Positions 37,326 through 64,000 of a stretch of 64,000 nucleotides of DNA are shown one piece after another. The notes under the pieces were generated by a model. The model did not search any database. It saw nothing but the letters and a program-made list of their open reading frames with translations, and was not told the origin of the DNA. The stretch comes from Cenococcum geophilum (lineage: Eukaryota), in NCBI GenBank assembly GCA_050273025.1, contig CP158635.1, positions 17,050,001-17,114,000 on the forward strand. The letters run 5' to 3'. Every line of letters begins with the position of its first letter. Position 1 is the stretch's first letter. The translations under genes were made by a program, and so were the position numbers.

Positions 37326-37859
37326 GGTGTATAAGAGTCTTTAAGCTCCTAAAGCATCTGGGTATTAGGGCTCGTTTGGCCATCTTGCCTAGAGGGTTAT
37401 ATTATCGTAATCTCTCGCTATTAAAGGGACCTTCCTGCTTTTGCGCGACGGCTTTCTATAAGGTATCTATAGAGTTTCCATTTAGGTCGTCGCGAGATTT
37501 TAAGGGAGGATAGTAGCTATAAATAAAAGATGTAAATAAACAATCTGGTCCTTAAAGCCGACTACCCTTCTAAAAAAGAGTAGGAAGGATTTAAATGTAA
37601 GGGGATCTTATAGATAGGGGGCTATAAGGACACGATTATAAAACAGGATAGATTAGTAAGAGAGATAAATCCTTAAGGAGGTAAGGCCTCTAGGATTGTG
37701 GAGACTATATACTACGGGCACGTGCCTTTAGTACGTGACCGGCGACCATCTAAGGGGCGTCTGGGGGTTGTCCTAAGGGCAACCTAAGGTGTCTATAATA
37801 ATATCCCTTACATTTAATCACTTATAATCCTTTACAGAAGGAACGTACGGCTATTGATT

Positions 37860-40800: not shown

Positions 40801-41580
40801 GCGTTATTAGAACACTACCTCCGCTACTATATTAATTATTAATAGAATAATTAGATATTATAGTTAGCTTTAGCGCAATACGTATATAATATAAGCATCT
40901 ATAGTAGTATAAAAATAACCCCTTATAAAGCATTGTTTGGGGTAAAAGTAAATAACCCCTAGAATGTTAAGGATATCGTTCTTAAAAGGGAGGCACTAGT
41001 AGCGTTTAAAAGAATTTGTAAAGAAAAACTTAAAAAGTACTTACTAGACGCCCAGGCTGTATAAAAAATGTACTATAATAAAAAAATATATACCAAAAGA
41101 ATTTAAGATAGAAGACGAAGTCTTACTATTTATAAAAAAAATCTAAATAAAACGTATTAAGAAGAAGCTGGATTACTAGTAGCTTAGACCCTTTAAAATA
41201 GTTAGGAAAACTAAAGGAAATTAAGCCTATAAATTAGAATTGCCGAAATTATATCTAATATATCCTATATTTTATATTTTCTTACTAAAGCTATATTAGA
41301 GAAGAGATAGTGCGGAACTACTACCCCTTAATAAAAATAATAGGGAACTAGAATAGAATATAGAAGATATTTTAAACTAAAGATAGTGCTAGAAAAAGCG
41401 TAAATTCTTAATCTGTTGGGAAGGATACTCCTAGGCGCATAACAGTTAAGAACCTAAGGAGCACCTTTAGCCAAGATATAATACGGCAATTAAAACCTTC
41501 CTAAGGACTAAAGGTAAAAATTTAATAACAGTTCTGGATATACCACAAATAAGACAATAGGAAAGACCCTATAAATTAAA
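37860..41580 (+). pseudogene. Gypsy E gag-PR-RH-IN-chromodomain, RT apparently deleted, RIP-inactivated
   Basis: CCHC knuckle (C)YNCGKKG(H)IKRFC (~38935), IDSGAT (~39135), RNase H HP.AF.SRK...Y.THD.ELL (~39330), integrase (~40280-40950), chromodomain FLI.WEGYS...N..EP (~41400). Confidence 0.85.
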
Positions 41581-41671
41581 ACTATAAGGTTAAGCACAGG
41601 CATTAAGAATGGAAATATTTTGCTATTATAATAGGGATCCTAAAATCCTATAAGGGGAAGCCTATAGAATC

Positions 41672-44600
41672 TGTCACAGTGCTGTAATAAAGTAGACTGA
41701 ATAACTACGTTATAGTATAAAGAGGGGAAGAAGGTGGAAAGGGGGTATTATATATAAATAGTAGGGCCGGCCGCTAAGTCGCTAATAGTAGGCTAGCTAA
41801 TAGTAGGAAATAGTATAAGACAGTATAAAACAGTATACGTTAGGTTAGTGCCGTAACAGTACTCCTCTCCCTTAGATAGTTTAGTCCCTAAACTAAATAA
41901 ATAACTTAAAAATAGGCAGTATATAGGGTTGCCTATTTTTTACCACGAAGATATTAGTTCCGCTTACCGCCCTTAACTAAGCTAATAGCGATTTTCTATA
42001 CTGGGCATAGAAAATCCTAATTAGTTAGTTTAGTAAGTAAGGTTGGCAGAACTTTATACCGCTACCTAAATCGGTCCGTGTGGCGTTTCTTGGCAAGAAT
42101 TTAGCTAATTAAATAACTTTAACCGCCGGTTAAAGTTCTATAATATCTTAACCACCATAAATTTTAATACGGTGGTCGGCCGTAACCTTAGCGTAACTTT
42201 TCCTTATCTTATACCTAGTCTAGGGGTCCTAGCTTCTTAGGGTGTTACTTATAAAAACGCTATATAGCTTATTTATAACCCTTTAGGTCTTCCTCTAGCT
42301 GCTAGGTTATATCCTTATAATATTTCCATTTAATCTTATAAGTTAGGCCCTAGGGGTCTTCGTTATATACATTAAGGATTTTCTTAAACTCCTATTTATC
42401 TTCTATGTTGCCGTTGTTATCTCTCTCTACCACTCGTCCTTATACATTACGGCGCTCTATAATATTAATATTTGCTTAGCTAGGGATCTCTTTAGTAGCC
42501 TAGAGGCGGACCTTAGATATATAAAAGGATTTGTTTACTTAGATGTGGTCTAGGAGGTCTACTATAACTGCCCCTTAGTATACTGCGAGTACGGGGTATA
42601 GGCCGTCCCATTTATTGTCCTATTTCTTCTTAGGTTTATTTATCTTTATATTTTCTAAGCTAACTATAACTATATCGCCTTTATAGAATAACGCGCTCTT
42701 ATCCCTATAGGTATTAGCATTATCTTTATAGCGTTGCTATAAAATCCAGGCTAGGGCCTTAAGCTATGTTAATATTTGCTTAAAGCGGTTGGCCACAGAG
42801 TCTACGTAAAAGAACTCCTTCTTTGCTTATGCTAATAGTGTTAGTAGGTAGGGGCTAGTAGGCTTAATTCCGAGGTAAGGGTTAAAGCTATAGTTTATAA
42901 AAAATGGGGAGATGCCTATACTCTTATTGACTTGGTTATTTATAGCAAACTTAGTAAGCGGTAGGTAGTTAACCTAGTTATCCTATATAAAGCTAATAAA
43001 AGCATAGAGGTATTTATTTACGGCAGCGTTAATAATTTTAGTTTGGCCGTCCGTTTCTAGGTGCTAGGCTAAGCTTAGTTATAAGATTGTCTTAAGGCGT
43101 TTACTTAGTTATTACTAGAAGTCGCTAATAAATTATATACCGCGATTAGAAATAATCGTATTTAGTACACTATAGAGCTTATATATGTTATTAATAAAGC
43201 TATTAACTAGCTCCTCTATTAAGAGTCCTATTACTAAAATGAGGTATTATATTTTAGTTAGGCGGTCTATAATAATAAGGATATATTTATATACCTTACC
43301 GTGGCGTTAATATACCGGCAGTGTTATAATATAGTTAATTAAGATATTGGTCTATGGGCGAGTAGGTAATTCTAGTGGCTTTAGGAAACCGGGCGGGGCA
43401 GAATAAGGGGTCTTAGTGCAAAAGTATAGGGCACAGTTTTTAATAAAGGTAGCTATAAACTAGGAGATTCCTAGCTACCAGTATATTTAGTTTAAGAGGT
43501 TAAGAGTCTTAACCTAGCTAGAGTAACTAGTGGGGCTACTACTATAAGAGTAATAGGTAACTTCTAGGCAGAGGTCTAGGGCGTTAGGGACGAAGAGATG
43601 TTAGCGGAAGTAGATCTATCTATTAATGATACTACATTCTAACTTATTACAACGGAGTAATTTTCTAATCTTCTTTAGCTAATAGCGAGCTTTCCGATTA
43701 TATAGGGCTGCTACTATATCTTTTACAAGTTTGTTCTCCTAGTATCCTAGCTAAATTAACTTATTTAGTAACTTTTTAGCTATTTTAGGGTCTAGAGCGG
43801 CTACGAACTCTATATTGTTAGAGTTATAGGACTTATATAGTAATTCTTCTAAAATTATAGGGTTAACTTTCTAGGGCGGTATAACGACTTAGGCTTGGTG
43901 GCGGAGGCGTTTGTTATTAGCGTCCTTAGGCCTTATTCCTAGTAGCCGGCTTAGGGCGTTAGGGAGTATAGCTTTACTGCTGGGTCTGTATATAATTACA
44001 AAGTTAAACTATAAAAGGAACTCTGCCTACCAGACTTAGTACTAGTTTAGCTACTTAGTAGTTATAAACGTCTATAGGTTCTTATAGTCGGTAATAATTT
44101 TAAACGGCTCCTTAGTCCCTTATAGCTTAGGACGCTATTTCTCTAAAGCCTTAATAATAGCTAAGAGTTCTTTATTATAGATCTTGTAGTTACACTCTAG
44201 TATAGAGTGCTTTATAGAGAAGAATGCGACCGGTCTTAATTTTCCGTTATTATTATACTAGGAAAGGACTCTACTAGAAGCCTAATTTAATACATCTATC
44301 TCTACTATTGTTTTCTTCGTATAGTTATAGTATACTAGTACTGGTGCTGAAGTAAAGGCTCCCTTAAGGGCCTTAAATGATTTAGCTTGTTTTAGTCCCC
44401 ATAGCTATCTAATATCCTTCTTTAGGAGTTTTATTATAGGTATAGCAATAGCAGAGTAGCCTTAGATAAATCGTTAGTAGAAGTTCGCGAAGCTAAAAAA
44501 TTGTTATAGTTCTTTAATTAATGTTAGGTCCTTTTATTCCTATAAGGCCTATACCTTTTTAGGGTCCATAGTTATACTATTAGTTAAGATAATTAAGCTA

Positions 44601-47600
44601 AGGTATTTTGTCTTAGTAGAGTAGAACTTAGACTTATTAATATTAATCTAAAGTCTAGTATTGCCAAGTCTTTAGATAATTTTATTTACATACTTAGTAT
44701 ACTCGGCGCGTACTTTAGAAAAGATAAGGACGTCGTTAAGGTAGGCAGTATAGTAGTTGTTAAGGGCGTTATATAAAATATAGTTAATATAGTTTTAGAA
44801 CGTAGCGGGTGCGTTATAGAGGCTAAATAGTGTAACTAGTATCTTATAAAGTCTAAACCGGGTAATAAATACTATAAGCCACTTATGGCCCTCTATAATC
44901 CGGATCTAGTTAAACGCAGCAATTATATTAAGTTTAGTAAAGTACTTAGCACTATAAAGTGCGTTAAGTGTCTCGCGGATTAGTAGTAGTAGGTATTAAT
45001 TCTTAATAGTAACTGTGTTTAGGCCTTAGTAGTTATAGTAGATTTATATACTGCTGCTAGGCTTAGTAGCGAGGAGGAGTAATACGGTAGCTAGTAAGGT
45101 TAATTTGCGGATAAAACCCTTATCTAGCATCTTATTAATCCACTTCTTTACATACCTAAGTTTAGCAGGTAAGAGTGGTTTATTTTTATAGTATGGGGCC
45201 TAGTTTCTAGGGGTGATCTTAATTTTATAGTCCTATGGTTGGTAAGGGGGCAGCTTATCTATATTTTTAGGGAGGAAGTGCTTAATATATTTACTAAACT
45301 CCTTTAGTAGGCGTTATAGAATATCTTCGCGGGTTAATCCTGGTTTGCTTTTTAGGAATTTTTTAATATTAGTGTTGACTATCTTCCGACGTAAAAGCTT
45401 GGGTTTAGTTTTTAGATTTATTTTAAGGAAGTTATAGAAATAGGGGGGGAGCACTTTATGGGCTTCCTTTATTATATAGTCGCCTTCTACTAGCCGGCGG
45501 AAAGACCTTTCTAATAGGTTTGGTACTTCTATTAGGCCTATAGGCAGCTCTTTAAGCAGCTATTAGTGCTTATCTTATTTAACTAGTTTTACTAGCCCCG
45601 CTATATAGATCCTTATTACCTTTACGTCTTTTTGTTTATAGAACTAGGTAAAATTAACAGCATAAGTATATTTAATATCGTCTAGGTTAGGGCGTATCTA
45701 GTTCTCTAGTGCTACAGCTAGGCTAGTACGGCTTAGTTAGCCTAGGGGGGCGGAAATAAGGCGGCGGCTTTATACGGTATATGTAGGAGATAGGTATAAG
45801 GTTAGGCGTTATAGTGGCGCGGTTTCTATTATCCGGGTCTTAGTAGTTCTATAGCTAGTCCTTACTATAACGCGAGCTATAGTATGTATATATAGTATAT
45901 GGCTTAGTTTTAGGTGTTGGGCTAAGCAGCTAGGGTTTAAATGGTGCCTGGGTTGGGGTTAAATTCTTAATAGTGGCGGCGTAAAGCGGACCTTCTTCCT
46001 TAGTCTTGGCAGGGCTAGCTAGCCCATTATTTTGGTCTTAAGTGCTAAAGTAGTCTAGTCTTCCACTGTTTCGTTTCTTTGCAGCTATATAGGCTCCCCT
46101 TTATTAGGAATGTCTTCTACTATTAGGGCTTTGTATATAGTCCTAGGCACTAGGCTTAGTAGTGCTAAGTATCTATATAGGGCGTCCCTACTAACGTTGG
46201 TTATCCCCTATAAAAGGCAGTGCCTAAAGCAGTAGTCTAAGTTAAAGTGGATCTTAAGTTTCCTAAAGCTAGGACAGGGCTCGTACTTCTAAAGCTAGGG
46301 TATACTTAAAATAATTAGGGTAGCGGGCGAGAGTTTAGTAATAAAAAAGAGCATGGCTTTAGTATAGAGGCTAATTAACATTTAGGTGGTAAAGTAGTCC
46401 GTAATAAGCGAAGTTAGGATACTATTTATGAGGCGTAGTGGCCTAGGTGCTAGCAGCTTCTTAATTATAATATTATACTTTCTTATAATAGACTCTGCGT
46501 TAATAAATGCTATTATAGTATTACCGGAGTCCACTAGGCTTACTGTATTAATATAAACTTAGGGGTATAGGTTATGTAATAAGGAGAGTTAGGTTTAAAT
46601 AAGGATTAATTTTTTATTACTATTTGCTAATTTAAGATTAAGTAGCAGTTTACTAATAGAAAGGACTAATTAATCTAGTAATAGGGACCTAATCTTCTCG
46701 TCTTCCTCCTTATATAGTTTAGATCCTTAAACGCAACTTAGTCTAAGGGTTTATCTTTTAACGACTAGGGTACAGGGCTATCTTAGCGGGGCGGTCCAGT
46801 GTCCGTCTAGCTGGCGGTATCGGTCTCGGTTTTAGTTAGGGTATAGGAAAATAATACCTCGCCAACGATATAGCCGTGTTCGTATTCGCTAGCGCAAAGT
46901 CGCTAATGCTAGGCGTTATTAATAGGTTGGGCTCCTATATAGGGCATAGTTTAGAATAACTAAGCCGTAGGGTTAAAGGGGGGGAGTTGTCCGCCGCGGC
47001 TATAATAGGCTCCACGGTCGCCGCGTCTATAATGGACTCTACGGTCGCCGTATCTGCGGTTATTAGTTCGTATCGTTTAACGGGGTGGTATTAGGACTAG
47101 GTTTACTATCTTAGCGGGGTTATAGGCATCCTTTTAGTGGCCGGGCAGGCTATAGGTAAGGCATAGTCTATTATTAATACGGCGCTTACGCTCCGTGTTT
47201 AAGATTCCATTAAGGTCTATAGGTTCTCTAGTTACTACTAGGGTTAGGGTTAATATAGGGGTAAGGGCTTGGGTAGGTAGGCGGTGGTTGGCGTTCTTCT
47301 TAAGGTTGGCTCGGTGTATATAGTTCGCGAGGTTCTTAGCGAATATATCTATCTACTTACTCCAACCTATATAGTCACTATTATTAATTTCGTAAGCAAG
47401 TCTAAGTACTAGCTCTTCTATCTTTAGAAAGATAAACTTTTAGAGTAGGTCCACCTTCTATTTATCTATCTTCTTGGCGCGGACTATTAGCTTATTAAGC
47501 TCTTTCTTCTAGGACTAATAATTACGCTCGCCCTAGGGGAAATAGTTAAGCTTATTCTTTGCGACTAGGTTATATTAAGGACCTTATAGTAGGCAGTAAG

Positions 47601-48585
47601 GTCTTTAAGTATATCTTCCTTAGTAGGCCATTTCTATGCAGATATATTATTTAGGTTCTCGTGCATAAGCTCTAGGCCCTACTTAATAAACTTATAGGCC
47701 TTGTTCTCTAGTATATCCGAGATATAAAGGATCTGGGACTAAACTATATTAAAGTAGTCCTAGTCCCAGTTAAAGACTCCCTTAATCTTAATATACTAGG
47801 TCTTAAAATTAGCTTATTATTCTAGTAGGGTACCTTTTCCGCTAAATATTAGCGGGTCTTTAGATCTCCGTTTTTTCTGCTAGGTTACTATCATTATTAT
47901 AGGGGTTAATTATTTTAGAACGGTAATAGTCTCTACTTAGGAGTTAATAGTTCCTATCTAGGAAGCAATAAGGGCACTAAGGTTTTTATTGGCTTTCTTA
48001 TTAGCGGTGTTTGTATTATATATATATTATAGTCCTACTTTAATATTGCTAAGGAACTTATTAGTATAGTTAATAAGGGTAAGGTAAGCTTTACTAGGCT
48101 TAAAGGTCTTAGGGTATAGTAGGGAGCGGCGGATTATCCACGTAATATTAGGGTATGTCTTTATAAAGAGGTCTACAAAAATATCGCGGGGGTTCTAGGT
48201 TTCGGCCATTTCGGCGTTATTAATATCGCCTATCTAGGCACTAGGTAAAAACTAAGGATCGTTTTAGGACTGTGCTAGGGATGTATCGGTTTTAGTAGGG
48301 GCGCGCGTAGGTCGCAATTACTCTAGGGTAGAGGTCAATTAGCTAGGGTACGGGGAATTAGTAATCGTAATAGGGCGCAAATTAAAGATACCATAAACTG
48401 TTACAGTGCTGTAATAAAATAGACTAAATAACTACGTTGTGGTATAAAGAGGGGAAGAAGGTAGAAAGGGGGTATTGTATATAAATAGTAGGGCCGGCCG
48501 CTAAGTCGCTAGTAGTGGGCTAGCTAATAGTAGGAAACAGTACAAGACAGTATAAAACAGTATACATTAGGTCAGTGCCGTAACA
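41672..48585 (-). mobile_element. Full-length Gypsy/chromovirus D
   Basis: 187-bp LTRs at 41672-41858 and 48399-48585. PPT at 41861-41872 (-). TSD GAATC at 41667-41671 and 48586-48590. Confidence 0.93.
42190..48209 (-). pseudogene. Gypsy D gag-pol, RIP-inactivated
   Basis: ATG at 48209, protease LVDSGN (~46530), RT AYL(D)DVLI (~44735), RNase H CNY.IY.KELLAI (~44170), integrase, chromodomain (~42300-42400). Confidence 0.88.
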
Positions 48586-49209
48586 GAATCTATAGAAGAA
48601 CCACTAGGGATACTGTCTAAAGAGGACATTATTTAAGAATAAGTAGTAGCAATATAAGAAGAGGTCTTAGGGATTTAAAAAGACCCTTAGGGATAGAAGG
48701 GGAGTATTTAGTCTAGCACTAGAGATATATAATAGAGTTAATAGTATAAAGAGGAGTAAAAAGACAGCCTATAAAGAATTAAAAATTTTAAGAAATTATA
48801 AAGTACCTATAGGAATACTACCCATTTATTATATATAGGGATTCTAGTAGTATACTACCTTTATATAAATTGCTACCAAAGCTTAAAATAAAGGCATCCC
48901 TAAAGTATAAAGTTAATTCCTAATAATAGGGCATTCTGGAGGCACCTAAAAGGCATTATATAATAATAAATTCAATTTACCGCCCGTCTTAGTCCCCCTA
49001 GTGGGTTCACGCAGGCTAATACCTTCTATAGGAAAAACTCTAACTTAGAGAAAACCCCACCTTAGGCCGCGCTAGAGAGATGGTAGTGTTCTGACATCGG
49101 AGCGCCGGCGGCTCGCCTTCTACCTGCCTTTAAGTCTGCATATTAAGCCAACTGGCCGTGCTTTACAGATAATCTCACTCTACCCCCTTCTTTCCTTATT
49201 TTTTTACCC

Positions 49210-52200
49210 TTATTCTTTTACCAGTCCTCTAGGCTTTAAAAGGGCTAGTATCTACTTATATTCTTTATATCTATTACCTTTACTACCTAAAACTAGGGTA
49301 AAATACCTAACTATACCAGCTATTTTGCTACTATTTAGGCGCTTTCTTTATTATTTAAAACACCCTAAAGGCGTTTAGAGGCGCATTTTGCTATAAAGTC
49401 CGCCCTTTAGTAGTGTGGACACTAAAATAGTATATAGTAGACTGTCTGCTTTATCTAGCTATATTTATACCGCAAGAGAACCGCCGGTACACCGACGGAT
49501 ATAAGCTATATATTAAGCCCTATTACCTCTATATAAAGGAGAAATAGTGCTATAGCCTCTGCTTTTGTTAGGCCTTTATATAATAGGATTATAGGTTTCC
49601 CCTATAGGGTTTTCTACATAATTTCTGTGCGGTCTTTAGCCTTTGCCTACCACTATTATCGCCATTCTAAATCTGCCCATTTCGCGATAAAGGTAGTTGC
49701 CTGCCTTTAGTGCTAGTAACCTTCTATATAATAGCGGCGCTCCGCCTATACTCTACTGGTGTTCCACTAGCTACGCTTATAGGGGTTTATTATAGCTTCC
49801 CGCTCTATATAGTCCTTCTAGTACGTAAGAAAGCCTTATATCTTATTTTTATAGTCCTTTATACGTTCCCTAAGCGCTTCTAATAATACTAGTAGCCGTT
49901 TTATTTTTTACTGGCGCTTTACTAATATATTCTAGATACCGTTAAGTACCTCTACTAATTCCTTTTCTACTTTATTAGAGGCCATCTTAGCGGCTCTTTA
50001 AAGGGCTATTATTTTAATATAGAGTTAGATTAGGGGAATAGCCGCTTCCTTCTCTATTGCAGCTATTAGTGTTTACTAGTATGCCCCTATAACCCTGCGG
50101 AGACACTAGTTTTGGACTTTCTATAGTAGTTTAAGCAAGCTTTTTACTAGCGTTCCGCCGTCATTCTGTACTCCCTATACTTAGGCGCTATATAGCATCG
50201 CTGGTTGGACGGTAGCTATATATAGGAGGCGTAAGCGGCGCATTAATAGGCCCTATATAGACGCGGTGATCCTTAATATCGCTTTAAAGGCTACTAAGCC
50301 CTTACTTATGGCCTTTTTAACCTATTCTTTTTATTGGAGCTTAGGGTCTACCTAAATCCCTAGGACTTATATGCTGGTTTTTTAGGGGGCTGTCTTGTAG
50401 CTAGTAATACACACAGTAGACGTAAGGTTTGTGGTGGCGTAGCGCTATCGCCTTATAAAGTGTATAAGCTAGTACTTCTTAGGGGCGAACGCCGCCCTAT
50501 ATCGATTTGCTTATACAGCGTAGTAGTTATAGGTGGCCTTTAATCGTCGACAGTTCTCTACCGCGGAGTCTCCCTAGGTAATAAGGTTTGTATCGTCTAT
50601 AAAGCTAAACCCTAGCGTGCTACTATTAGGGCGCTAGAATTCCTCTAATAGCTCTAATATAAAAAAGAGGAATAAGATTAGTAATAAGGGTAACCCTTAG
50701 GGGATGCCTATCTATATCTAAATCTAGTTGCTCTTATATTCTATAAACTTAATATAGGTTTTATGTACTATTAGGAAGCTTTATACGAAGTTTATAAGCC
50801 ACTTTAAAAAGCCTTTTCTTTTTAAAATATAGAGGAGCCTTTTATAGGAGATGTTATTAAATACCCCTGCTAAGTCTAGGCTTAGCATTAATACTATACA
50901 CCTATGGCGCGTTCGCTACGCCGTTTATACGTAAAAGCTAAGCAGTCCTATTACTAATAGTGTAAATTATTTACGCTTTACTCTCATCTAGTTCTAAAGG
51001 AGTAGCCTATACTCCTCCGCAGCCTTAGATATAATGTTAGCTATATACTTTTTTAGGACTTTTACTAGCGTGTTTTTAAGGGTAATTAGTCTATAGCTGC
51101 CTAGGAGAGAGTAATCTTTCTTTCCTTTTTTATATAATACTATAGTTATAGATTCTTTAAGGCTTTCTAGTATTATTCCGCTGGCGAAGTAATAACTAGC
51201 TACTTCTGCTAAATCTTTTATAATAACTAGGGTAACCACTTTAAGGACCTTGTTTAGTATACTATCTAGCCCTAAGGCTTTTTTATTTAGAAGACTTCTA
51301 ATAAGCTTACCGATTTCTTCTGTTAAGATAGTAGGGCTAATATTAAGCACATTTTGTTCCCTTATTGTCTCCATATTACTAAGGTCTGCTATTCTAGTTT
51401 TAGAAAAGAACTTAGCTATAAGGATATTAGCCTTTATAATATTATTATCTATTAAGGGATCCTTAGTAGACCTCCTAAGGTCTAGTAAATAGGGGTCCGC
51501 CTTTACTACGCTTGCTTTTCTACTCTATTTTAATAAAGTCTAAAGTCCCTTATTATATGGTTTTAACTAGTCTTTAATAAGTTTATAAATAAAGTGTCTC
51601 TAGTTATTATAACTAACTCTCCTAGTCTCTTTTTGCAGTTAATTATTTAATACTAAATATCTTTAGTGGTCCTTAGGGTTGTTATAAGCTTAGAGCTATT
51701 ATCGCACCTATTAGGCGCCGGCGTGGAGCTATATAGCCTATAGCGACCATTCTTAATAGGCCTGCTGGCTAGGTTGTGCTTATAGGCAGTGTTCTTTAAG
51801 TACTTACTTAATCCCTTCCTAAAGGGCTTAAAAGGGGTCTTTAAATATAGTCCAGTTAAGCTCCTATATGCTTTAGAGAAAGCCCTATAAGTTTAGCTTT
51901 TTAAGGGCAAGGCGCTGGCGTTCCGCTAGCGGATAGCCGGCGTTATTAATTTGGATATAAATCGGTATATGGTCTTTTATAAGGGCCTATTCCTTAACTA
52001 TACTATAAAAGTTAACTTTTCTATATAGATCTGGTGATATAAACGTAAGGTCTATTACACTCTCCTATTGCCCTCTTTTCTATATAGGCTCTCCTTTTAG
52101 TATAGTGAGTACTAGGCTTTTAGCATTGGTTTTGGCTAGAAGACGTTTCGCCTGCTCTTTACTAGCTATATGCTTTTCACCCTATATTAGGTAGTAGGCG

Positions 52201-52616
52201 TTAAAGTTACCTAAGAGTATAATTTCTCCCTTGGCTTCCTTAATAGCTATTTTAATCTTAGGCCATGCCCTAATCTAAGGGCCATCTTCGCGCGGGTTAT
52301 AAATATTAATAATTGTAGCCTCTAGCCCCTTTAGGCGTACCTAGAGGGCTATAGTAAAGGGGCTATACTGTCTGCGCTTCTAATGCGCGGTGTTAATATT
52401 TTAGCTAATTATAAAGCAGACCTTTATTATAGGGAGAGCGTTATATATAAGTGTAAATCCCCTAGGGCAGTATATTAATTTAGTATATCTATTATATACC
52501 AGCTTCTAAATTGTAAGGACCTAGTAGTCCGCCGGCGTAACGCTATTAAAGAAGGGGCGATATACCCCTTAGTTTGCATTTCCGTAGTTATACTAGATAA
52601 TTATATACTTACTTAT
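49210..52616 (-). pseudogene. LINE ORF2: APE endonuclease, reverse transcriptase and C-terminal Cys/His motif
   Basis: IIQYN..N start (~52600), LLG(D)FNA (~52210), KALGLDSI...YRLITL.NTL.KVL (ORF 50994-51374), GIP(Q)G.PL, FIDDTNL (~50595). Confidence 0.9.
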
Positions 52617-52619
52617 TTA

Positions 52620-54105
52620 AAGTAGGTATAGGCTTATCTATGTTTGTATCCTATTCCTCGTTATTTTTGCTATTAACTATTATTACTCTATTGGCGCAAA
52701 GCCGGAGCCTTAATTATAATCTATCTCTACTTACTATTTTAATAAAAGATAGTTTACCTAGTCCCCATTTAAGTAGTTGTTTTTAGGTCCCTAGGTAAAA
52801 CATTTCCCGTCCTCTTTTCTTATTAGTGCTAATTATAAGGTTTCTTAGTATTAAGGGTTGGTATATTATTTCTATAGCTTTTTATATACGGAGCAACTGC
52901 GTTAAGAAGACTATCTTCTTTATTTAGATACCTTTAAGGTAGCTTTAAAAGGTCCTATACTCTTTTCTTTACTATACTTTATGGGCTTTACTATAGTTAA
53001 TATAGGATACCCTTTTCTTAGGGTAATCTGTGGTGTTATATAGTCCTATACATTACCCACATTTTATTTACTTTCCGCATGCGCTTTATATATACCCCTA
53101 TTAATTATAATAGTAGCATTACTTTATAATCACGCTATTCTTAAATAGCCTAGTCTTAAAAAGCTAGGATTTAATAACTATCCTACTTTTTACAATCTTT
53201 TGCTAAATTGCTTAGGTTAGGACGCTAATTATAATTATTTCCCTAGTCTTCTTAGGTTCTCTCTAGGCGCTGCTAAAGTTTACCTAGCATTTCGCCTATG
53301 CTTTAGGGTCGTGTAGCTATCGGATCTAGCTAATAGCTATTCTAGGCACGAGGCGCTTCGTGGCTTTATAAATGGATTAAGTTAATTCTAAATTATTTAT
53401 ATCCCTTTTACTATTAATTAGAGTCTTAAGCAGGACTCCTAGTACTTTTAGGAGATAATTTTTCCTTAGTATCCTAAGTCCTAGCGTATTTAGCCCGTTT
53501 AGGATTTAGTCCTTTATTATTTAGGAGGGGATATAGACATCTACGTCCCTACTATTAAGTGTGCATACGGCGTATGCGCTTAGTATTATTCTCTAAATAG
53601 TCTTAAGAAGCTCCCCTAGTTTGTGGCCTTAGGGCTCCTTAAGCTAGACGCGTATACTCGCTCTTTATAGTGCCGCGACTATATTTACCGTGCGGGCCGC
53701 CTGCGCAGCGACGGCTGCCTAGGTTTGGACCTGTACTAAGGAAACTCCTAGGCCTAGGGGTCCTCCTTTACGCGTTTCTTTTTAGATTTTCTTAATACTA
53801 GCTTTAATTTGGTTAAGCTAGGCCTTAGTCTCTTATTCTTGGGTTATCTAGGGGACTAGACGCGTTAAGAGGGCTTTAATATACTATATTGCCTTTTAAA
53901 TAAAGGCAAGTATCTAGTGCCGTAGAGTTTCTTCCTCCTCTTTTATAAGATTGTTTTTAATTTATTTAAGTATTTCCTTTAGTTTTTACTATTGCTAGCA
54001 GCTGTCCTTTTCGCGTTATTACCCACCTAGTTCGTAGTTCGGCTCCCGCGCGTTATAACTCTTACAACTTTAGTAGGGAGCCTACGCCCCTCCGTCGTCC
54101 CCCAT
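52620..54105 (-). pseudogene. LINE ORF1 (gag-like), RIP-inactivated; limits approximate
   Basis: Lies upstream of ORF2; TWAAVAAQ-like motif at ~53700-53725. Confidence 0.6.
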
Positions 54106-54671
54106 ACTCTAAATAGGGGGCGGCGTAGTTTTATAGGGTTTCTCAGTGCGGGGAATAGGATTCTAATATTGGGTTGCTTTATTAAGTAGTTTTTAGGCTA
54201 GTTTCGCTGCTGTTACGGCTTTAAGTCTCTAATTAAAGGCACTATATAAAGCTATTCTATAAAAGAAGGGAAGAACTAGATAATAACTTAAATACTAGTA
54301 GCAGTAATAGGAGCCTCCTTATTTATCTTAACGTTATCCTTAATAGTATTATTAGGACTTTTATCCCTAGAAGCATTAGCACTTCTATTAATATTCTTCT
54401 TAGTATAACGGGAGCTAGAAGGACTAGCATAGGTAGGAGACTAGTAAAGAGAATATTTATTTTAATATTTATTGCTATTTTTAGTATTCTTAGGCTCTAA
54501 ATTAGTATAGTTCCTAAATATATTACTAGAGAAACTTACCTAGCTAGAAAAGCCTACGTAAGGGTACGAATATTATTATTTATAAGGGTAAGCTGCTTGT
54601 ATATACGCTCTTAGACACTATATATCTAAAATCATTACGTCTCTATAGTAGTGGAAACCCTTATTAAATTA

Positions 54672-57600
54672 GGTCGCCACTATTTATACACCCCCTAAAT
54701 AATATACGTACACCCCCTAATTGATACGCATCCCTTCGTGTAGCAATTGACACTTTTTGTATTAGGCGCTTTAGGCGCTTCTGCTTGGGTTAGCATGCTA
54801 CAGGCATCCTAGCTAGCGTGATTTTATTTACAAGCCCTACCAAAACACCTTAATATTGCGATGCCGACGAAATACTACCTAAGGCCACTACTACAAAAAC
54901 ATTAAATATATTTTTTGAGGAAGTTGGGTAAGAAGTCGTGATATATATAACGTTATGGCTATACGTTCCTGTTCTTCCTCCATTAACCAGCTGCTAATTA
55001 TATAGGAAAAGCCTTTATTAGAGTCCTCCCCTAAATCCTTACTACCTATACGCTTTATACGCGTTCTTATTAATAAGGATAAACTAGTAGAGGATCAGCT
55101 TAAGGTTATAAAGGAGGACGTGTTGTATACGTCAAATAAAATAGATTAGATGCTACAGGTGATTAAATAGTTTAATTAGCAATTGTTTAGTATAAAGGCG
55201 CGTTTAAAGGCAGTAGAGAAGGGCTTAAGGATAGACGCTGTAGTAAAGCTTAGTTAGCTTTAGAGTCTCAATATTAGGCGTAAGGAAGTAAAGGATTAAA
55301 AATAGTTACCTAATTATTGCCTACTAAATAAAAGTCGTTAAAGTACTATAGGTATAGAGGAAGCCTACAAACCTCGCATTTGTATACTGTTCGCCTTATC
55401 TTTACTATAAGCTTCCTTGTGTACTTCCATCTACACATCTAATACATTAGTAAGCTCTTATAGCCTTCCTTCTTTATATAGCTCTTAATATAGCGGTAAG
55501 TTTGCGTTTTATACTGTTGAATTATAAGTAGTAGGGTTTTGGCAGTAATATAAGTGCTTTTTTAATTTGTTCTAGTATTTTTATAACTAGGCCCAATACT
55601 AGGTTTATACTAACTAGGTTTATATTACCTATAATTTAGTAATATTAAACAAAGAAGACGCTTAGTATCTTCCTCATTTATGCCTATCTGCTAACTGCCC
55701 ATAATAACAAGGTTTTATGCCAATTATACGCGGAAGCGGCGATGGGTTTAAAGGAAGGGCTTGCTTAATGTTTAGAAGATCTTCTTGCTAATAATATAGG
55801 CGTTAATTATAGCCATATTAAGCGCCTAGAAGAATAAGGGTATCTAGGTGCGCATAGTGGTAATCTGGGTAGTATAGTAGCTTTAAAGTTAATTATAGAT
55901 ATTAACACCGCCTATCTAATTATTATAGTCAATAGAGAGCCTAGGAAGCGTTAACTTCTTAATTAAATTATTGCCCTAAATATTAGCTACTAGCTTCTTA
56001 AGAAAGGAATTATATACTCGCGGCTGGCGCTAATTAACTTCATTAACATCCTTATCGCCGCATAAGTAAGCTATCGTTAAAAACTATACTAAATTCTTAT
56101 CCTGCTACATAATTAAAAGCACTAAATCAGCTGCGCTAACGACTATTTCTATAATAAAATTAAACGGCAGCCTTACCTTCCTTTTATTGGCCCTTTTATG
56201 CACCTTTAAATAGTCCTTTAAGTTTAATTAAACCGTGCCAGCTGCAGCAATTCTAAGTCGTCAAAGCACCTAAAGTAATGGAATATTTGTAAAGTAGTTA
56301 TCTAAAAATAGGCAGAATTAACGGGCCTGGAGAGAAAGCTGCTAGGTAAGGTAGAGGACGCACTTAGAGGTCTTTAAGAGGACGATATCTTGGTAATCTG
56401 TTTAAGAAGGAAGCCTAAAAAAGTAACCAGATAAGGTAAATATAAAGCTATAGTAATATCCGTATTAATAAAGACTTATTATTTTAAAGCCTTTAGGTAC
56501 TAGCTTACTAGGCAATTTAATTATAGCCATAAATCGTCTAGTAAACCTTACTATTATTTTATTAAAACTAACTATAGATTTAGGTATAACGTACTTCTTA
56601 AATACCTTACCTAGAGGAGTTGTTAACGGCTTAATTTTCTCAAAGATCTGGCGTTTAACGCCTTTTAGTAGAGGCGGTGATATATAAAAAAAGCGCTTAA
56701 GTTACTCCCATCTTTTTTAGCCCATAAATAAGCTAATTGGGTGCTAAGAATATTCAAGATCTGTTGCCCAAAAGTCTTATACTTAAGGAGCTTTAAAGAC
56801 GCCTATATAGATAATAAGTCTTACCTAAATCATCAACTCGCCAGCAGAGGTCTCCTTCTATACCTATAATCGTCTACCAGCGTGTCGTCCTAATTAGTAA
56901 TATCCACCGGCGTTTTAGAAGGCTGCATAAAGGTTTGTGTTAATAGCAAGCTTCTTAAATACACTAATGCTAAAGAATAGTAGAAACACTTAAATCGGTA
57001 GGTCCTATTTAGATTTACACCTACCAGACGTTATACCAATCTAATCTGCTAGTATATAGTAAGCAGAGCGCTTAGTATCCTCATTTTAAGCAGAAAGATT
57101 AACAGATTTAACGCCCGCGCTAAAGCCGTAAATAGGCTCACCAACACGCCAAGCAGCGAATATTAGCTCCTTAGGAAGGTTAACAACTTTAAGATTTAGT
57201 TCAGAAACGGCAGCCATAGGCTCCCATGTAGTAGGAACGGTAGGAAGGTCTATTCTTACAACTTCTTCAGCTAATAGCTCTGGTAATTCAGTCTCATCCA
57301 CCTCATCTACCTTATCCTTGGCGGTCTCACCATAGGCCTCAAAAATAGCTCCTACTTCGTCCTCAATATCCTCCACCTAGGTACTCGGCCGAGCCTCTTA
57401 AATATCCTTACTTAGCGCCGCTACCTGCTGCACAAGTACTGGAGCCACCAAAGCCTCTAAAGGCTGTACAACTACTACCGCCAAGCTATCGTGTATATAC
57501 TGCGTTGCTTAAAAGGATTGTAAATAAGACTCCTATACTTGAGGTGCTTTTAGAGGCTTTGTAGGCCTTAGAGCTTTTAAAGCTTTTAGGGCCGTAGGAG

Positions 57601-58612
57601 GCTTCGGAGCTAAAGACGCACGACGTTTTCTAGGCGGCATAAGAACGATATCTCGCTAAGGGTTTAATCAAATAGGCAGCAATAATATTAAAGCTTTTTA
57701 ATCAACTATACTACTAAATATTCTATACAGGCTCCTAGCCACGTCGCTGCTGCTCACCGCAATATTCGAGCGTCAGAGGCGCATGAGGCGCCTATACCCC
57801 TACCGCCGAGCAATCGCACTGACCAAGGCTTCAACACTAAGCTATATACGGTATAGAGCCTTAGATTGGCTTAAGAGGCGTGCATATACGAAAAGTGCAA
57901 GAAATCGTTGCCCAAGAATGGGATACACCCCCCAATTGATACGCATACACCCCCTACCTTATTTAGTTTAGATGCTTCCTCATCAAGTTAGATGCTTCCT
58001 TATTAAGTTAGAATATCACGTGCGTTTGATTTGTTTGCGCCTACATCACGAAAATCAAAGTGCGAGTCCATAGTATTTCGCTCAAATGCTGAGGGCTCTC
58101 TACGAATTAATCTGTCGACGCGATTGGCAATTGTAGAGCTAGTTATAGAGTTAATTGGCCGACCGCGGCGACGCTCTACAATTGCAGGCTCTTAAATGCG
58201 AAGCAGAGGTGTTGATTTAGGTCCCACCGGGCGCAGGCGTGGGCGCGGGCGTGGGCGCAGGCGTGGGCGCGAAGCAGAGGTAGCAGCACCTAAATCAGTT
58301 TGCGCGACGCCTCACAAAGCACTGCGCAATGAATTAATTAACTCAGGCGCGATCCAAATTTAGACTCTACTACTTATGCTATAACTAAAATCAAGACTTA
58401 ATCGTGAGGTTGCAGTTATAAAACTTACATAGCGCGCACTTTGATTTTCGCGATGCACGCGCAAACAAATCAAACGCACGTGATATTCTAACTTAATGAG
58501 GAAGCATCTAACTTAATAAGGAAGCATCTAAACCAAATAAGGTAGGGGGTGTATGCGTATTAATTGGGGGGTGTACGTGTATCATTTAGGGGGTGTATAA
58601 ATAGTGGCGACC
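54672..58612 (-). mobile_element. DNA transposon with piggyBac-like transposase
   Basis: TIRs of about 58 bp starting GGTCGCCACTATTTATACACCCCC. Flanking duplication TTAAATTA at 54664-54671 and 58613-58620 (or TTA only). Confidence 0.9.
55310..57640 (-). pseudogene. piggyBac-like DDE transposase (~777 codons), RIP-inactivated
   Basis: MPPRKRR start, ELMI(W)V(G)LIIY(M)G, DFW, ISLFM..KRWE.LKRFF, and a C-terminal RTVYKCEVC.LPL(C)..(C)F..F(H) Cys-rich domain. Includes ORF 57086-57376 in frame. Confidence 0.8.
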
Positions 58613-58620
58613 TTAAATTA

Positions 58621-59004
58621 AAGAGCCTATGTAAGGGTAGATACCTTTTATCCCCGTCTATCGCTATTTAAATATAGGCGGAAATCCTAAATAGCGTAAT
58701 AGAGCTTATAAGTCTTATATATATAGATAGCGGGGATCTAATATAATTAGTAAAATTTAGAATAAGACAGAATGGAAAATACTAGAACGTAGGTCTTTCT
58801 CCTACTACAGCAATAAAAATACTTAGATTTGTTTTTACTAGAATAAGGCATCTTATAGGTATAAAATAGGTTTAGTATAAGTACGTAAACGCAATAACGG
58901 TAGCACTTTAGAGAGATTACTATAGGAGTAACAGAGGTGGTCTAGGGTGGCACCGAAATAACACCGCTGCCGGTTAAAGGACGCGCAGTACGACTATAAG
59001 ATAT
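58621..59004 (-). pseudogene. 5' part of an antisense Cys-cluster gene in the Gypsy E 3' region (intron 58738-58782); continues at ~54290-54663
   Basis: KC.R.C...(C)...K(C)..C......(C)V, then a 45-nt GT...TACTAAT...TAG intron, then IP. Several Cys are inferred from RIP-type TGY>TAY changes. Confidence 0.55.
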
Positions 59005-59391
59005 TATAAGAGAATACTATAAAAAGTTAGTATTATTAATAGAGATAAATAGGTATCTTATTACTTATAAATATATTATAAAAAGAGAATAGAGCAGCTA
59101 TAAAAGGATAGCTAGAGATATAGAAGCTAAAAGCTAAGATATAGTAAAAACAGTCTACTAAAAGACGAGACGAATGGTGTTATTAATAAAAAGACGTATA
59201 AGAGACAACAGCTTATAAACTAGAAGAAATTAAAATTAAGACGTTATTATTAGAACCTATTTTAGGTAAATAGGGATAGTAGCTTATAGATACATTGCAT
59301 AGGATAACCTCTAGATTAACTTATAACAAACTCTTATAATAAGAAAGGTAAATCCTATCCAATTATTATTATTATTATTTTAGTTCTATTA

Positions 59392-60329
59392 ATAATAGAT
59401 TTAATTTACCGTCCGACCTAGTCCCCCTAATAGGTCCACACAGACTAATTCCTATAGGAAAAACCTCCTTATCTGAGAAAAACCCCATTTTTTTAGGTAT
59501 ATAAAAAACCTCTAGGGGAAATATAAGAGGTAATACTTCTAGATAGCATCCGTACTACATTAATAAGAGGAAAAACACCGTTAGGTTACTGCTTTAAGAC
59601 TCTATAAAAGTGTCTAAAATACCTATCTTACCCCGTCTACTATTTAAACCATTTTTGCCACGTCTATATATTGCCTATATAAAGTTATATACCTATCCCT
59701 AGCTCCTTTTCCAAGTCTCCTATAAATATCTCCTGATAATGATAACGCTTTTGCGTTCCGCCCGGGCCTATATACTAAGGTCTCTTATCCATTCCTTTAT
59801 TAAAGGGTTTCTACAACGGGGTGTATATGACTTAGTATCGCTTTTACCCTAGGGCCCAAACCTAGGCCCTTATACCTATTCGTGAGGTATAGGAGGACAC
59901 TCTAGTATTTAGGGGGGACCAGTCCCTATTAACTAGATACCTAGGTTGCCGGGTAATATTAAAATAGGGGGCCTCTGCTACGCTTAGGGCGCGGATTGTA
60001 TGCATATATGTGCGGGTGCTATATAGTGTTTATAGTATTTATAGGAGGGAGGGGGTACGCCGGAGGATAATACTTGTCGATTTAAATGACTGAACGTATA
60101 TATTAGAGACGTGGTAGCTATGTTCAAACTTTTGCTGGGGCTCACCCCCTAGCGAAAAAAATTTCACACCACTACCACCACGTCGCTGCGCAGGCGCTGC
60201 GTAGCCGTACACACGTCTCTGCGTTTGCTCTGGTAGTCTATTAACACAATCCAAATAGAACATTAATAGTAGCTGCTAGGTTCCTGGGCTCCACCACGTG
60301 GAGGTGCAAAGGCCGATTTCATCGAGCCC
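59392..60329 (-). mobile_element. ~0.94-kb non-autonomous non-LTR (SINE/SIDE-like) element
   Basis: 22-23-bp TSD TTATTATTATTTTAGTTCTATT(A) at 59369-59391 and 60330-60352. The 3' ~95 nt (59392-59488) resemble the LINE 3' end (48963-49060). Confidence 0.85.
60215..60329 (-). ncRNA. Putative HDV-like self-cleaving ribozyme
   Basis: Minus strand: P1 GGGCUC/GAGCCC, P2 CUUUGC/GCAGAG, P3 ACC/GGU, L3 UCCACGU, P1.1 GG, long P4 hairpin, J4/2 CAAAC. G1 is the first base of the element. Confidence 0.75.
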
Positions 60330-60903
60330 TTATTATTATTTTAGTTCTATTATAAAGGCATTATAAGGAGCTATAGTGGAAGAAAAGCGGAAGAAAAGTG
60401 GAAGAGCTAAAAATAAAGTAAGGTTCTATGCTTATAAAGAACTAGCTATAAGCCGTATTATAGAGTACCTTTCTAGTAAGAATCTTCCCTAGTAGTTTTA
60501 GCTAGAACTCTATAAAAGCTTAGTAGAGGCGAAGTCTTAAAGGACTAAAACCCTTAAAGGGGAGGCAATTGTAACAGAATCCCCTAGAAGGTATATATTA
60601 GATAAGACAGTAGGAGGTTTTATTTATATCCTATCTATATTCTATCTACGTCCTAAGAGATACGGTTAGATAAATAAGGGGCGAAGGGTTTTACTAGCGT
60701 TTTAAAAGGATTATATAGGGAGCTAGATCTCCTCTAAAGAAGAGCTAGCGATTAGTCTCTAAATAAAAGAGGTTAGAAAGCATTTATCCTTTATATGTAA
60801 AGATCGTTCTACCTTAACTTATCTTCTACTTACCTGTAACTCTTATTCTACACTATTAATTAGATAATTATATATTCCGGTTAAACTGGCCTCTTATAAT
60901 AGG

Positions 60904-63226
60904 CTAGCTATTTTTACCTTAAGATTATATTGTAGCTACCTAGGTCCGTAATAAAAAAGGGGATATTATATTACCTTCGTCTATTAACACAGAGGTAAAT
61001 TTATATAATAGTTATAATAAGTAGCCCTATCCGCCCATTATACCTATAGATAGGAATTAGTTTAGGCAGTTCTTTAATAAATATATTTAAAAAGTTAGCT
61101 AGCTTTACGGCATACTAGGTATCTATTAAGGTAAAGATATTTACTCTAGAGTTAGCTAAAGTAAAGGTTAAAACTTAGTATCTATTACGGAATAAAATAT
61201 AAGGGATGGTGTAGCTTTTTCTACTAACTAGCTAACCTAGATTAACATATAATATATTAATCCCTTTTAACCCTAAAGAGGAGTTTTCCTCTAGGGTTCC
61301 TCTTTTTCTAACTTTATACTATCTTCCTAGATTAACAGAACCTTGTCCGCTTTTACGCCCGTTAGGTAATCCTTTATATAATAATTCATTGCTTAACGTC
61401 CGATTCGGATCCCTATTGGGCCCACGCGGACTACTCCTTATATACATGTGGGGAGAAAACTCTATTTGAGAAAACCCCGTGATCCATCTCCCCGCCTTTT
61501 GGGACTCGCCTGCGGGGCGCCTGCGAGTCACCTGTGGTGCTCCTACTACCTTACTTTTTGACCTCCTTGGGAACCACTGCTGCCGTAACAAGCCTACGGA
61601 CGCGCTAGTATCGCAAACTTTACTCTACTGCTATAGAGTCATTAGGGGGCACCCGTTGCTCGCCCCCCTGCCTTCTATTGCCATTTCCTTTGCAACCCGG
61701 AACTGGTAATCCTTTATATAGTAACCTTTCTAACTATAAAAGAAGTAAGCTCCTTAATTACTAAGGGCCTATATATAGGGGTTACTATATATAAGCCAAG
61801 CATTCACTTAACTTATAGTAGGACTAGCTATACGGCTAGCTGCTAAATTAGCAGTAGGCTATATAGGCGGTGCTATAGGGGCTACCGATCGTGCTAGGGT
61901 ATTGCGGGCCGTTCTTATATTGCTTATAGTTTAATTTAAAGGGTTTCTAGCTTTATACCGTTTAGCGTATACCTTAATTTAGTAAAGGCCTTAGTTAATA
62001 GCCAAGCACTAATCTATAAGTTCCTTTAGCATCTATATAGTAGTAAAAACTAGTAATATAGCTTGCTATAGGTCTAGGGTAAGCTTATTAAATAGGTTTA
62101 GCATTAAATCTTTTTAGGGAATTTAAGCCTAGCTAGCTAGGTGCAGAAAGTGGGTCTAAAAGGCTAAGAAGGTCTCTATTGTTTTTATATTTAGGCTTTT
62201 ATAATTAAGTTAGGTATTTTATACTTTAAAGGGGTCCTTATAAATAGAAGATAGGTAAATAATTATCTCTTTATTAAAGAGGAAGGGATTTACTAATTTC
62301 TATACGTACTAAGGACATAGGTGCGTCTATATATCCCCGCTAGTACGGCTAAAGACATAGGCCATTTTAGCCTAAGTAGTAGGAAAGTAGTCCATATTAA
62401 CTTTAAGCTTATCCTATAATTAAAGCTTCTAATTATTAAATATAGGGTTAGTTCTATTTATAAGTAATAGGGGGTCCGCAACCTTTATAGACCGTAATAA
62501 TACTAATACTATATATTAGGCTAGAGCTTTAAGGACTATAGTAAGTCTCTAGGTATTTAATACCTCTTTATTAGGTATAGGGGTTTTTCTAACTTTAAGC
62601 AGCTCTTAAAGTTATTTAATTTTAGTATTAGCTGCTATAAGCTCCACCTAGGAGTTTAAGTTAGTTACTATTTTACTATTAAAGGCATTTAATAGTCCTA
62701 CAGCTACTTTACCGGCTGCTGTATTTCTTAGCATTATGGTATAGTTATTAGGGTAACTTTTAATAGGATTCTATAGGGGTTCTGGTCTATGCGTATTTTA
62801 TAAATCTTATTATTCTTTTTTATTCTTCTAGTTTTGTTTTATTCTTTAAGTTCTAATAATAGTTTTTAGGTCTACTTCTATATTCTATTCTTATTTATAA
62901 TCCATAAATATTTTTAAGTTCCTTCTTAGAAAGAAGAGGTAGTTAAGCTTTAGATAATATTAGCGACTTAGTTAATTAAGGCACGAGCACGGTAAAAGGG
63001 ACGCGTAAGCCTATACGATTGGCAGTCTATAAACGAAGATCTAAAGCTAAAGAAAGACGAAGGGTGGCGCCGCTTAACGTTATATACAATCCTCTAGTTA
63101 CGTGACGGCAACTATTTAGAACTGTATAAAACTGTCTATAACTATCTACGACTATCTATAACTATCCGCTATAATCTACCAATATCTATTAGCTACAATT
63201 TACTAGTTTCTACTAGTGCCGTAATA
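60904..63226 (-). mobile_element. Gypsy F 5' part: 5' LTR (~62958-63226), gag with CCHC knuckle (~61705-61750) and protease (~60970-60995)
   Basis: T(G)TTACGG...CGCTAA(C)A LTR-like ends, (C)FF(C)..KG(H)..KD(C), VLIDEG. Contiguous with 24169-24902 across the E TSD. Confidence 0.75.
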
Positions 63227-64000
63227 AAGTATAAGCGGCGATAATATATAGCAAGGTAGATATTATTAAGCTATATATATAAACTGTATAAGGAGGTTAA
63301 GACGTTATATAAGGAAAGAAGGTAGAAAAATAGGAAGAAAGGGTATATATTGTGGACTTAGTTACTTAGTTAATATATATATAAAGCAGAATAGGATTTA
63401 GGTAGTAGTCCTAGTAAAACTTAGTAGGATTTAGTAGAACTTAGTAGAACTTAGTAGAATATAGCAGAATGTAGTAGGTTGCTATTAGATTGCCGCAGAT
63501 TACTATTAGATTGCCGTCTTATAGTTAGTCTTTAGTTGCTAAGTTAGTAAAAATAGGTAAACGTATATAAGGTGTTATGGGGGTGTCCCATAATAGTACC
63601 CCCCTTTTAAACTTAAGCTTCTGTAAGATAGGGCTATAGTAGTTCTAGGTGGAGTTTATAAAAGTTTTCTGCGGCTTATATAAGTCCTATAGAGTTAACG
63701 GGTTCCTATAAGGGCTTAGTAAAGCCTCTCTATTTTATAAGATATATATATTAGCATTTCTGTTTATTATACTTAATATTATTAATTCTTTTAATAAAGC
63801 ACTCATTCTTACCATCCACTTTAACTGGTAGGGGAGGGTCTTATATTTATCTGGGTAGGGCGTTTAATATAGGAGTAGTAGGGTGGAGGACTGATATATA
63901 GAATATGGGGTGGATTTTAACCATATTAGGGAGCTTTAATTGGTAGGCGTGGGAGGAGATAACCTTCTTAACCTTATAAGGGCTAGCGTTCTTCTAATTA
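63227..64000 (-). mobile_element. Gypsy G 3' end: chromodomain, PPT (~63599-63609) and 3' LTR (63595 leftwards)
   Basis: Minus frame YL.K(W)RGFT.P.(W)EP. AAAAGGGGGGGTAC followed by T(G)TTATGGG. Confidence 0.75.

Follow-up and report, generated by a model that had tools for sequence, protein, structure and literature searches.

A probable three-exon gene antisense to gag-pol in a RIP-mutated chromovirus of Cenococcum geophilum

Introduction

When a Cys-rich reading frame turns up on the wrong strand of a decayed retrotransposon, was it ever a gene, and is it one that fungal retrotransposons share? The question is raised by a stretch of 64,000 nt from Cenococcum geophilum (assembly GCA_050273025.1, contig CP158635.1, positions 17,050,001–17,114,000), here called the window, whose own numbering is used throughout. 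The window is a fungal repeat region heavily altered by repeat-induced point mutation (RIP), with TA/AT ratios of 1.4–2.6 and (CA+TG)/(AC+GT) mostly 0.3–0.6. It contains a Gypsy-type retrotransposon, element E, broken by later insertions. A first-pass annotation had pointed to a Cys cluster followed by a short intron on the strand opposite to gag-pol of E, had likened it to a similar arrangement in a second Gypsy family, B, and had proposed an accessory module of fungal chromoviruses. We find that minus-strand positions 54288–59004 are probably the RIP-mutated remnant of a three-exon gene lying antisense between pol and the 3′ long terminal repeat (LTR) of E.

The window copy of this gene is dead. 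Its minus strand reads ...KCYRYCV...KSKYFYCCSRRKTYVL, ending at 58783, and the frame resumes with IP... after the intron. It carries 12 in-frame stops from RIP, an ATA in place of the start codon and a transposon within exon 2. Taken by itself, the pattern of Cys and intron signals is at chance level. The window has 82 stop-free runs of at least 64 aa, and 377 of its 4843 stop-free 53-aa windows are equally rich in Cys or Tyr. Over the 128 kb of both strands there are 143 intron-like motifs by a loose definition and 13 by a strict one. The pattern is beyond chance once 78 other copies are added, and it is those copies that make a RIP-ruined repeat readable.

Other Copies and the Restored Consensus

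The first query was the read-through translation of 58614–59004, compared with 1.84 billion representative proteins. Two matches were obtained, and both are fragments of E: P0001 (85 aa, 70% identity, E 2e-25) and P0002 (45 aa). Both have a Met start at the 59004 end, and they show Cys at positions that are Tyr in the window. A search with P0001 then retrieved 80 loci from metagenome contigs, of 88 relatives found. The alignment used below has 79 rows, the window copy and 78 loci. A de-RIPed consensus was made by putting C or G back wherever at least 6% of the copies retain it. The least-mutated locus, L030, was taken as the reference for domain order and layout of E.

Exons and Introns

The de-RIPed consensus of the 79 rows encodes 243 codons in exons of 228, 251 and 250 nt, separated by introns of 45 and 47 nt; the corresponding positions in the window are given in Table 1. 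At the start codon 56 of the rows have ATG and 22 have ATA; at the terminal codon 73 have TAA. In the family consensus, exon 1 ends two codons past the seventh Cys of the cluster described below.

The 45-nt intron of the first-pass annotation is upheld at the same place, with IP... after it. Its donor GTATTT is kept in 74 of the 79 rows. Its two in-frame stops are present in all 79 and never appear as CAA, CAG or TGG; stops within the exons vary among rows against CAG, CAA, CGG or TGG. The second intron has its donor, GTAAGT or GTGAGT, in 74 rows and its 3′ TAG in 75. In natural copies intron 1 runs GTATTT..TACTAAC..TAG over 45 nt and intron 2 runs GTGAGT..TGCTAAC..TAG over 46 nt. Intron 2 (47 nt in the consensus) shifts the reading frame, and the continuation falls in the sole open frame. 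Both introns have the features of ascomycete introns: they are short, are bounded by GT..AG and have a branch site of CTAAC type close to the 3′ end. A search of the 2 x 2241 nt of consensus for GTRNNY..CTAAC..YAG returned the motif twice, at exactly the two introns, and there is none on the opposite strand.

The second intron had been annotated at 54497–54539. The 5′ end at 54539 is right; the 3′ end at 54497 is not, being a RIPed TTTGG within exon 3. A 42-nt deletion, seen in the window copy and in none of the other 78 rows, has taken away the genuine 3′ splice site of intron 2 along with about 12 codons.

The ancestor of E would thus have had an accessory antisense gene of three exons and two short spliceosomal introns, encoding about 243 residues and perhaps transcribed from the roughly 590-nt spacer upstream of its ATG or from the 3′ LTR. 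Introns in such a gene can survive, since reverse transcription copies the sense-strand RNA, in which they sit in an unspliceable orientation.

One DNA contig, from run X1, has additional tandem TAGAATAAAA-type units at 58758–58787; therefore, the length of intron 1 varies among genomic copies.

A Coding Pattern of Substitution

In the consensus, the gene frame has three stops up to intron 2, all of them intronic, and the frame of exon 3 stays open up to the terminal TAA, against 5–17 stops in each of the other frames. There are two subfamilies, of 37 and 34 copies, and the differences between their consensuses were counted by codon position. For positions one, two and three they are [12,11,29] in exon 1, [13,10,26] in exon 2 and [19,8,23] in exon 3. 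The third-position excess over all exons, [44,29,79], has p=2e-6. The flanks counted in the same way are flat: [16,16,12] in the LTR, [35,35,36] in the upstream spacer and [25,32,26] in the downstream spacer. No control window out of 33 reached p<0.01. By codon, 56 differences between the subfamilies are synonymous and 63 non-synonymous. The substitution pattern across these E copies, all RIP-mutated and drawn from loci selected by the open reading frame (ORF), is of the coding type.

The Encoded Protein

The Cys cluster can be restored codon by codon. TGY and TAY are found in 54 and 25 rows at codon 36, 42 and 37 at codon 37, 43 and 36 at codon 40, 8 and 71 at codon 52, 57 and 22 at codon 64, 16 and 63 at codon 67, and 54 and 25 at codon 74. 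Since RIP can turn TGY into TAY and never the reverse, Cys is ancestral at all seven codons. This bears out the Cys that the first-pass annotation had read through Tyr at codons 37, 52, 64 and 74; it had named Tyr at those positions in unmutated copies as the outcome that would count against it, and the other copies have Cys there. The His that it had proposed at codon 39 is an ancestral Arg (CGY in 23 rows). The Cys of the window copy at codon 68 is itself a RIP product of Arg. The resulting spacing in the consensus is CC-x2-C-x11-C-x11-C-x2-C-x6-C, set among Arg and Lys. Around it, the consensus protein has an N-terminus rich in Pro, Ala and Gly, an Arg-rich middle (net +12) and an acidic tail of Ser, Asp and Glu (net -7). 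An acidic tail had been annotated in the window copy, where the tail is in fact rich in Lys and Asn; it becomes acidic only once RIP is reversed.

The binuclear zinc clusters of fungal Zn(II)2Cys6 transcription activators (Gal4 type, Pfam Zn_clus) are spaced C-x2-C-x6-C-x5-12-C-x2-C-x6-8-C. Six of the seven Cys of the E product can be laid out as C-x2-C ... C ... C-x2-C-x6-C, with the second half exact and a basic run like RSRRK, and after the cluster come a basic, helical region and then an acidic tail, as in small activators. However, the first loop is x11 rather than x6, so that the canonical pattern fails and fits only with a first loop of 6–14. We treat the similarity as a resemblance only. 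Judged by composition, the product might be a nuclear protein that binds zinc and nucleic acid and regulates the element or host silencing, an assignment that we make tentatively and would give somewhat less than an even chance.

Searches with the protein returned little. P0001 as a homologue query matched nothing except itself, exon 1 of L030 found no homologue among longer proteins, the protein atlas had no usable match to P0001, and a search of the PDB by sequence gave 0 matches. An AlphaFold2 model of 53 residues of L030 exon 1, made from the single sequence with no alignment, is unusable (mean predicted local distance difference test score, pLDDT, 49; predicted template modelling score, pTM, 0.26).

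Element E

As the first-pass annotation had stated, E is a chromodomain Ty3/Gypsy retrotransposon, or chromovirus, in the plus orientation and of a family other than B. It has an LTR pair with an ATAGG target duplication, the order gag, protease, reverse transcriptase, integrase, and a C-terminal chromodomain recognised by eye. The domain order is taken from L030, in which Pfam finds zf-CCHC, an aspartyl protease, RVT_1, rve and SH3_Tf2-1 in order on the strand opposite the ORF. The chromodomain follows SH3_Tf2-1 and was seen by eye only, no Pfam match having been obtained for it. In L030 the 3′ LTR occupies 9062–9404, the antisense gene runs from its ATG at 10001 to its stop at 10814, and pol stops near 11296. 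Relative to L030, gag-pol of the window copy has lost 1.36 kb of the protease-reverse transcriptase region. The RNase H piece of the window found nothing as a homologue query, and Pfam on the stop-free ORF pieces of the window gave almost no match because of RIP.

The layout around the antisense gene is given by the loci, where the window pieces 60900–60330, 59391–58614, 54670–54237 and 48963–48588 form one continuous stretch. The leading 330 nt of these joined pieces reappears about 7.4 kb further on in the loci, as LTRs. Both in L030 and in the window, the ORF lies inside the LTR retrotransposon, between the pol end and the 3′ LTR and on the strand opposite gag-pol. A by-eye 'protease' at 60970–60730 was withdrawn because it overlaps the LTR of E.

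Family B

Family B has a comparable first exon of 64 codons that ends C-x2-C-x7-C-V-K, read from the two copies in the window and 3–4 locus copies. An intron-like motif directly follows it and is the only such site in 2 x 3324 nt. Downstream of this exon nine stops remain, and the reading there is uncertain. A 'KKKVAVYY' stretch near 21400 had been considered as the B gene and was rejected: its Tyr were His in more copies, and the true exon is at 21852–21661.

The proposed match between B and E holds for layout. They are alike in position, in orientation, in having a Cys-rich first exon, in an intron two codons after a Cys and in a CGCTAAC branch site in the consensus. Homology of the proteins is not supported. 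The first exons align with a Smith-Waterman score of 40 against 28.8 +/- 5.4 for shuffles (p=0.042), and over full length p is 0.17. The later exons look unlike, E having the acidic tail and B a Pro/Thr-rich, hydrophobic end.

A conserved accessory module of fungal chromoviruses is accordingly offered here as a hypothesis. Of the claim as it was made, the antisense coding gene stands; its presence beyond this lineage is not supported, the only database matches being the two E fragments. A stronger form would be that unrelated fungal chromovirus families each carry an intron-protected, antisense, small zinc-cluster gene whose product has basic as well as acidic parts and, like a transcription factor, regulates the LTR of its own element or host silencing, and that E, B and the brtn gene discussed in the next section belong, as diverged members, to one old class that RIP and introns hide from annotation. 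We consider this stronger form unlikely at present.

Antisense Genes in Other Retrotransposons

The brtn gene of Boty was reportedly the subject of Zhao et al. 2011, Virology 417:248. Papers that cite this work place brtn antisense in Boty elements of Botrytis and Sclerotinia, between pol and the 3′ LTR (PMC8365987, PMC7264820, PMC4227169), and there is a BRTN-like transcript in Monilinia (PMC5987419). A review lists ORFs of this position and orientation for Grande1, RIRE2, Retand, PvRetro13 and Boty and calls their function unknown (PMC7264820). The arrangement is therefore not unprecedented, and the E gene adds another case.

The likeness of the E gene to brtn is by description: both are extra genes that run antisense to gag-pol, lie between pol and the 3′ LTR and belong to fungal Gypsy elements with a chromodomain. 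No database protein matched the E product except the two E fragments. The plant antisense ORFs, again by description (PMC7264820), are similar in position, orientation, presence across the copies of a family and coding-like conservation, and they differ in belonging to another kingdom and to other element lineages. Our literature search found no account of fungal chromoviruses whose antisense gene has a Cys cluster or introns.

The antisense genes at this place in plant Gypsy elements and in Boty have no known function, and E is well suited to comparative study. Its copies number in the dozens and form two subfamilies, the introns are clear, and the layout of the protein suggests nucleic-acid binding. 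Should homology among E, B and brtn prove true, there would be a third conserved gene class in fungal chromoviruses beside gag and pol, with a bearing on how the elements regulate themselves or escape silencing.

Alternative Readings

Several observations weigh against a gene in E. No copy is intact: in-frame stops number at least 5 among the 79 rows, with a median of 10 and a maximum of 14. De-RIPing removes stops in every frame, and it leaves a 145-codon open stretch in another one. Transversions per site are 0.044 in the coding part against 0.031–0.035 in the flanks, so the coding part is not the more conserved. Codon 93 is TAA in 34 of the 37 copies of subfamily 0 and never CAA, and it is AGG in subfamily 1; the founder of subfamily 0 probably had an already truncated gene and still multiplied. 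Codon periodicity alone leaves the strand undetermined, and the choice of strand rests on the open frames and the splice signals, among which the GTATTT donor of intron 1 lacks G at +5. The loci were retrieved with the ORF itself as bait, and its presence in 80 of 80 is uninformative on E copies without it. Pfam gave no match at E<=10 for the exons of three natural copies (L030, L043 and L052, exon 1 included) or for P0001, all of which have Cys-to-Tyr damage. RNA reads, mapped at a likeness of at least 80% with about 12% of the RNA run read, gave the window copy a depth of 0 over 58648–59349 and of at most 1.48 over 54202–54669 (run X21), a weak null because reads from unmutated copies would miss that threshold. 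Neither intron is among the 15 of 97 splice joints listed for one RNA run, which has almost no depth there. The letter differences listed for mapped reads are 40 of 1862, and none of those 40 is inside the gene.

One alternative would be that there never was a gene, the frame, the Tyr/Cys stretch and the intron motifs being chance features of an AT-rich, RIP-degraded spacer, and the consensus ORF an artefact of changing T to C and A to G. The lack of significance in the window alone, the opening of other frames by de-RIPing and the failure to find homologue, domain or RNA would all fit. We nevertheless regard it as improbable, since chance would have to account for a third-position excess in each of three exons beside flat flanks, for ancestral stops lying only within the proposed introns, for an intron motif that in 2 x 2241 nt is confined to the sites of the two introns and for a frame shift over intron 2 that falls in the sole open frame. 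It is more plausible, yet still on the unlikely side, that the gene is real and a one-off capture of a host gene by E, with B as a separate, unrelated capture and no shared module. The marginal similarity of B and E, their unlike later exons and the failure to find relatives in other elements speak for this. Against it, a host homologue was not found either, B and E have in common the position, the orientation, the Cys-rich first exon, the intron after a Cys and CGCTAAC, and brtn in Boty (PMC7264820) shows such genes to be recurrent among fungal Gypsy elements. The Cys-rich stretch could also be read as the 5′ leader or upstream ORF of the minus-strand long interspersed nuclear element (LINE) downstream of it, not antisense to a Gypsy element at all. 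In the window this looks natural, with a LINE encoding endonuclease and reverse transcriptase directly downstream on the same strand, a LINE 3′ end just upstream and plus-strand Gypsy domains absent nearby. However, the LINE is next to the ORF in none of the 80 loci (coverage 0.0–0.6 over 54157–49157), and within E it is flanked by a separate target duplication of about 14 bp. The loci place the ORF without the LINE, and we rejected this reading, which has next to no chance of being right. The remnant of a three-exon gene antisense in E is thus the reading that we prefer.

Feature Coordinates and the Insertions That Broke E

Table 1. Positions in the window of element E, its antisense gene, the insertions within it and the family B exon and intron.
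Feature	Positions	Strand	Remarks
Family B copy 1, antisense first exon	21661–21852	-	8 Cys, ends C-V-K; consensus of 5–6 copies
Family B putative intron	21608–21660	-	GTGAGC ... CGCTAAC ... TAG in consensus
E, whole	24903–60898	+	Five nested insertions; ATAGG target duplication at both ends
E 5′ LTR	24903–25233	+	ATAGG before it at 24898–24902
Family B copy 2	25237–37815		Inserted in E
E gag-pol	37816–41667	+	pol end near 41600; RNase H and integrase similarity at 39329–40905
Gypsy family D	41668–48586	-	Inserted in E; target duplication GAATC
E spacer, pol stop to antisense-gene stop	48587–48963, resumes 54237–54287	+	Locus layout
LINE	48964–54236	-	About 50 nt past the stop of the antisense gene; target duplication about 14 bp
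Antisense gene, exon 3 remnant	54288–54503	-	Terminal TAA; acidic tail before RIP
Antisense gene, intron 2 remnant	54504–54539	-	5′ splice site GTAAGT, GTGAGT before RIP
Antisense gene, exon 2, second part	54540–54670	-	
DNA transposon	54671–58613	-	Inserted in exon 2; 61-nt terminal inverted repeats; 8-bp target duplication TTAAATTA
Antisense gene, exon 2, first part	58614–58737	-	Arg-rich
Antisense gene, intron 1	58738–58782	-	45 nt, GTATTT ... TACTAAT ... TAG; two in-frame stops
Antisense gene, exon 1	58783–59004	-	74 codons in window, 76 in family; Cys cluster; start RIPed to ATA
E spacer upstream of antisense ATG	59005–59391, resumes 60330–60569	-	Putative promoter region, about 590 nt in intact copies
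Truncated LINE	59392–60329	-	5′-truncated copy (3′ end) of the same LINE family as 48964–54236
E 3′ LTR	60570–60898	+	ATAGG target duplication after it at 60899–60903

The splitting of the 3′ region of E by a DNA transposon, also part of the first-pass annotation, is confirmed by the target duplication TTAAATTA and by the loci, which lack the insertion. Neither this transposon nor the LINE at 48964–54236 is found at its site in any of the 80 loci, and the truncated LINE at 59392–60329 is missing from most of them. The LINE at 48964–54236 encodes an endonuclease (Exo_endo_phos_2, 1.8e-7) and a reverse transcriptase (RVT_1, 1.8e-10), with zinc knuckles of ORF1 seen by eye. The similarity of 59491–59380 to 49063–48950 places the truncated insert in the same family. 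E has thus received two inserts of one LINE family, one of nearly full length and the other a 940-nt 3′ end. On the truncated copy RNA reads reach a depth of up to 459; many of them begin at 60133–60181 and are unlike the sequence upstream.

The DNA transposon has a weak match to DDE_Tnp_1_7 on the minus strand (E 2.6e-4; 20.8 bits, under the cut-off of 22.4). It also has an inner inverted repeat of 141 nt, at 57924–58064 and 58435–58575. RNA-type contigs from run X16 skip 54961–55011 and 54927–55005 within it, which suggests spliced transcripts of related copies of the transposon.

Other Observations in the Window

The sequences around E, at 60901–63999 and 23205–24904, are a mosaic of several repeats. 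Rfam and tRNA scans of the window gave no match. Families D and A have about two extra copies each. Antisense to the 3′ region of D, at about 42390–42470 on the plus strand, is an 'LLCCRCY' stretch with more Cys downstream, for which there are only about two other D copies; it could be a third antisense Cys-rich ORF.

Within B copy 1, 14354–20835 is an LTR-bounded element with 234-nt LTRs that are 97% alike and a GC content of 44–49%. It shows little RIP, with (CA+TG)/(AC+GT) at 0.85–0.94, and Pfam found nothing in its stop-free pieces of at least 48 aa. The element may be young or non-autonomous. Within B copy 2, 31800–34400 is a GC-rich block (53–56%) with tandem repeats of periods 12, 20 and 4–8 nt and with long open frames on both strands.

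Beyond the 3′ end of E, a 330-nt unit at 61379–61708, probably a solo LTR or a small insertion, stands alone in many loci; other loci have its flanks contiguous but lack the unit itself. At 63650–63993 on the minus strand is an integrase SH3 domain (Pfam, 9.4e-9) with a by-eye chromodomain, belonging to another Gypsy family that is cut by the window end.

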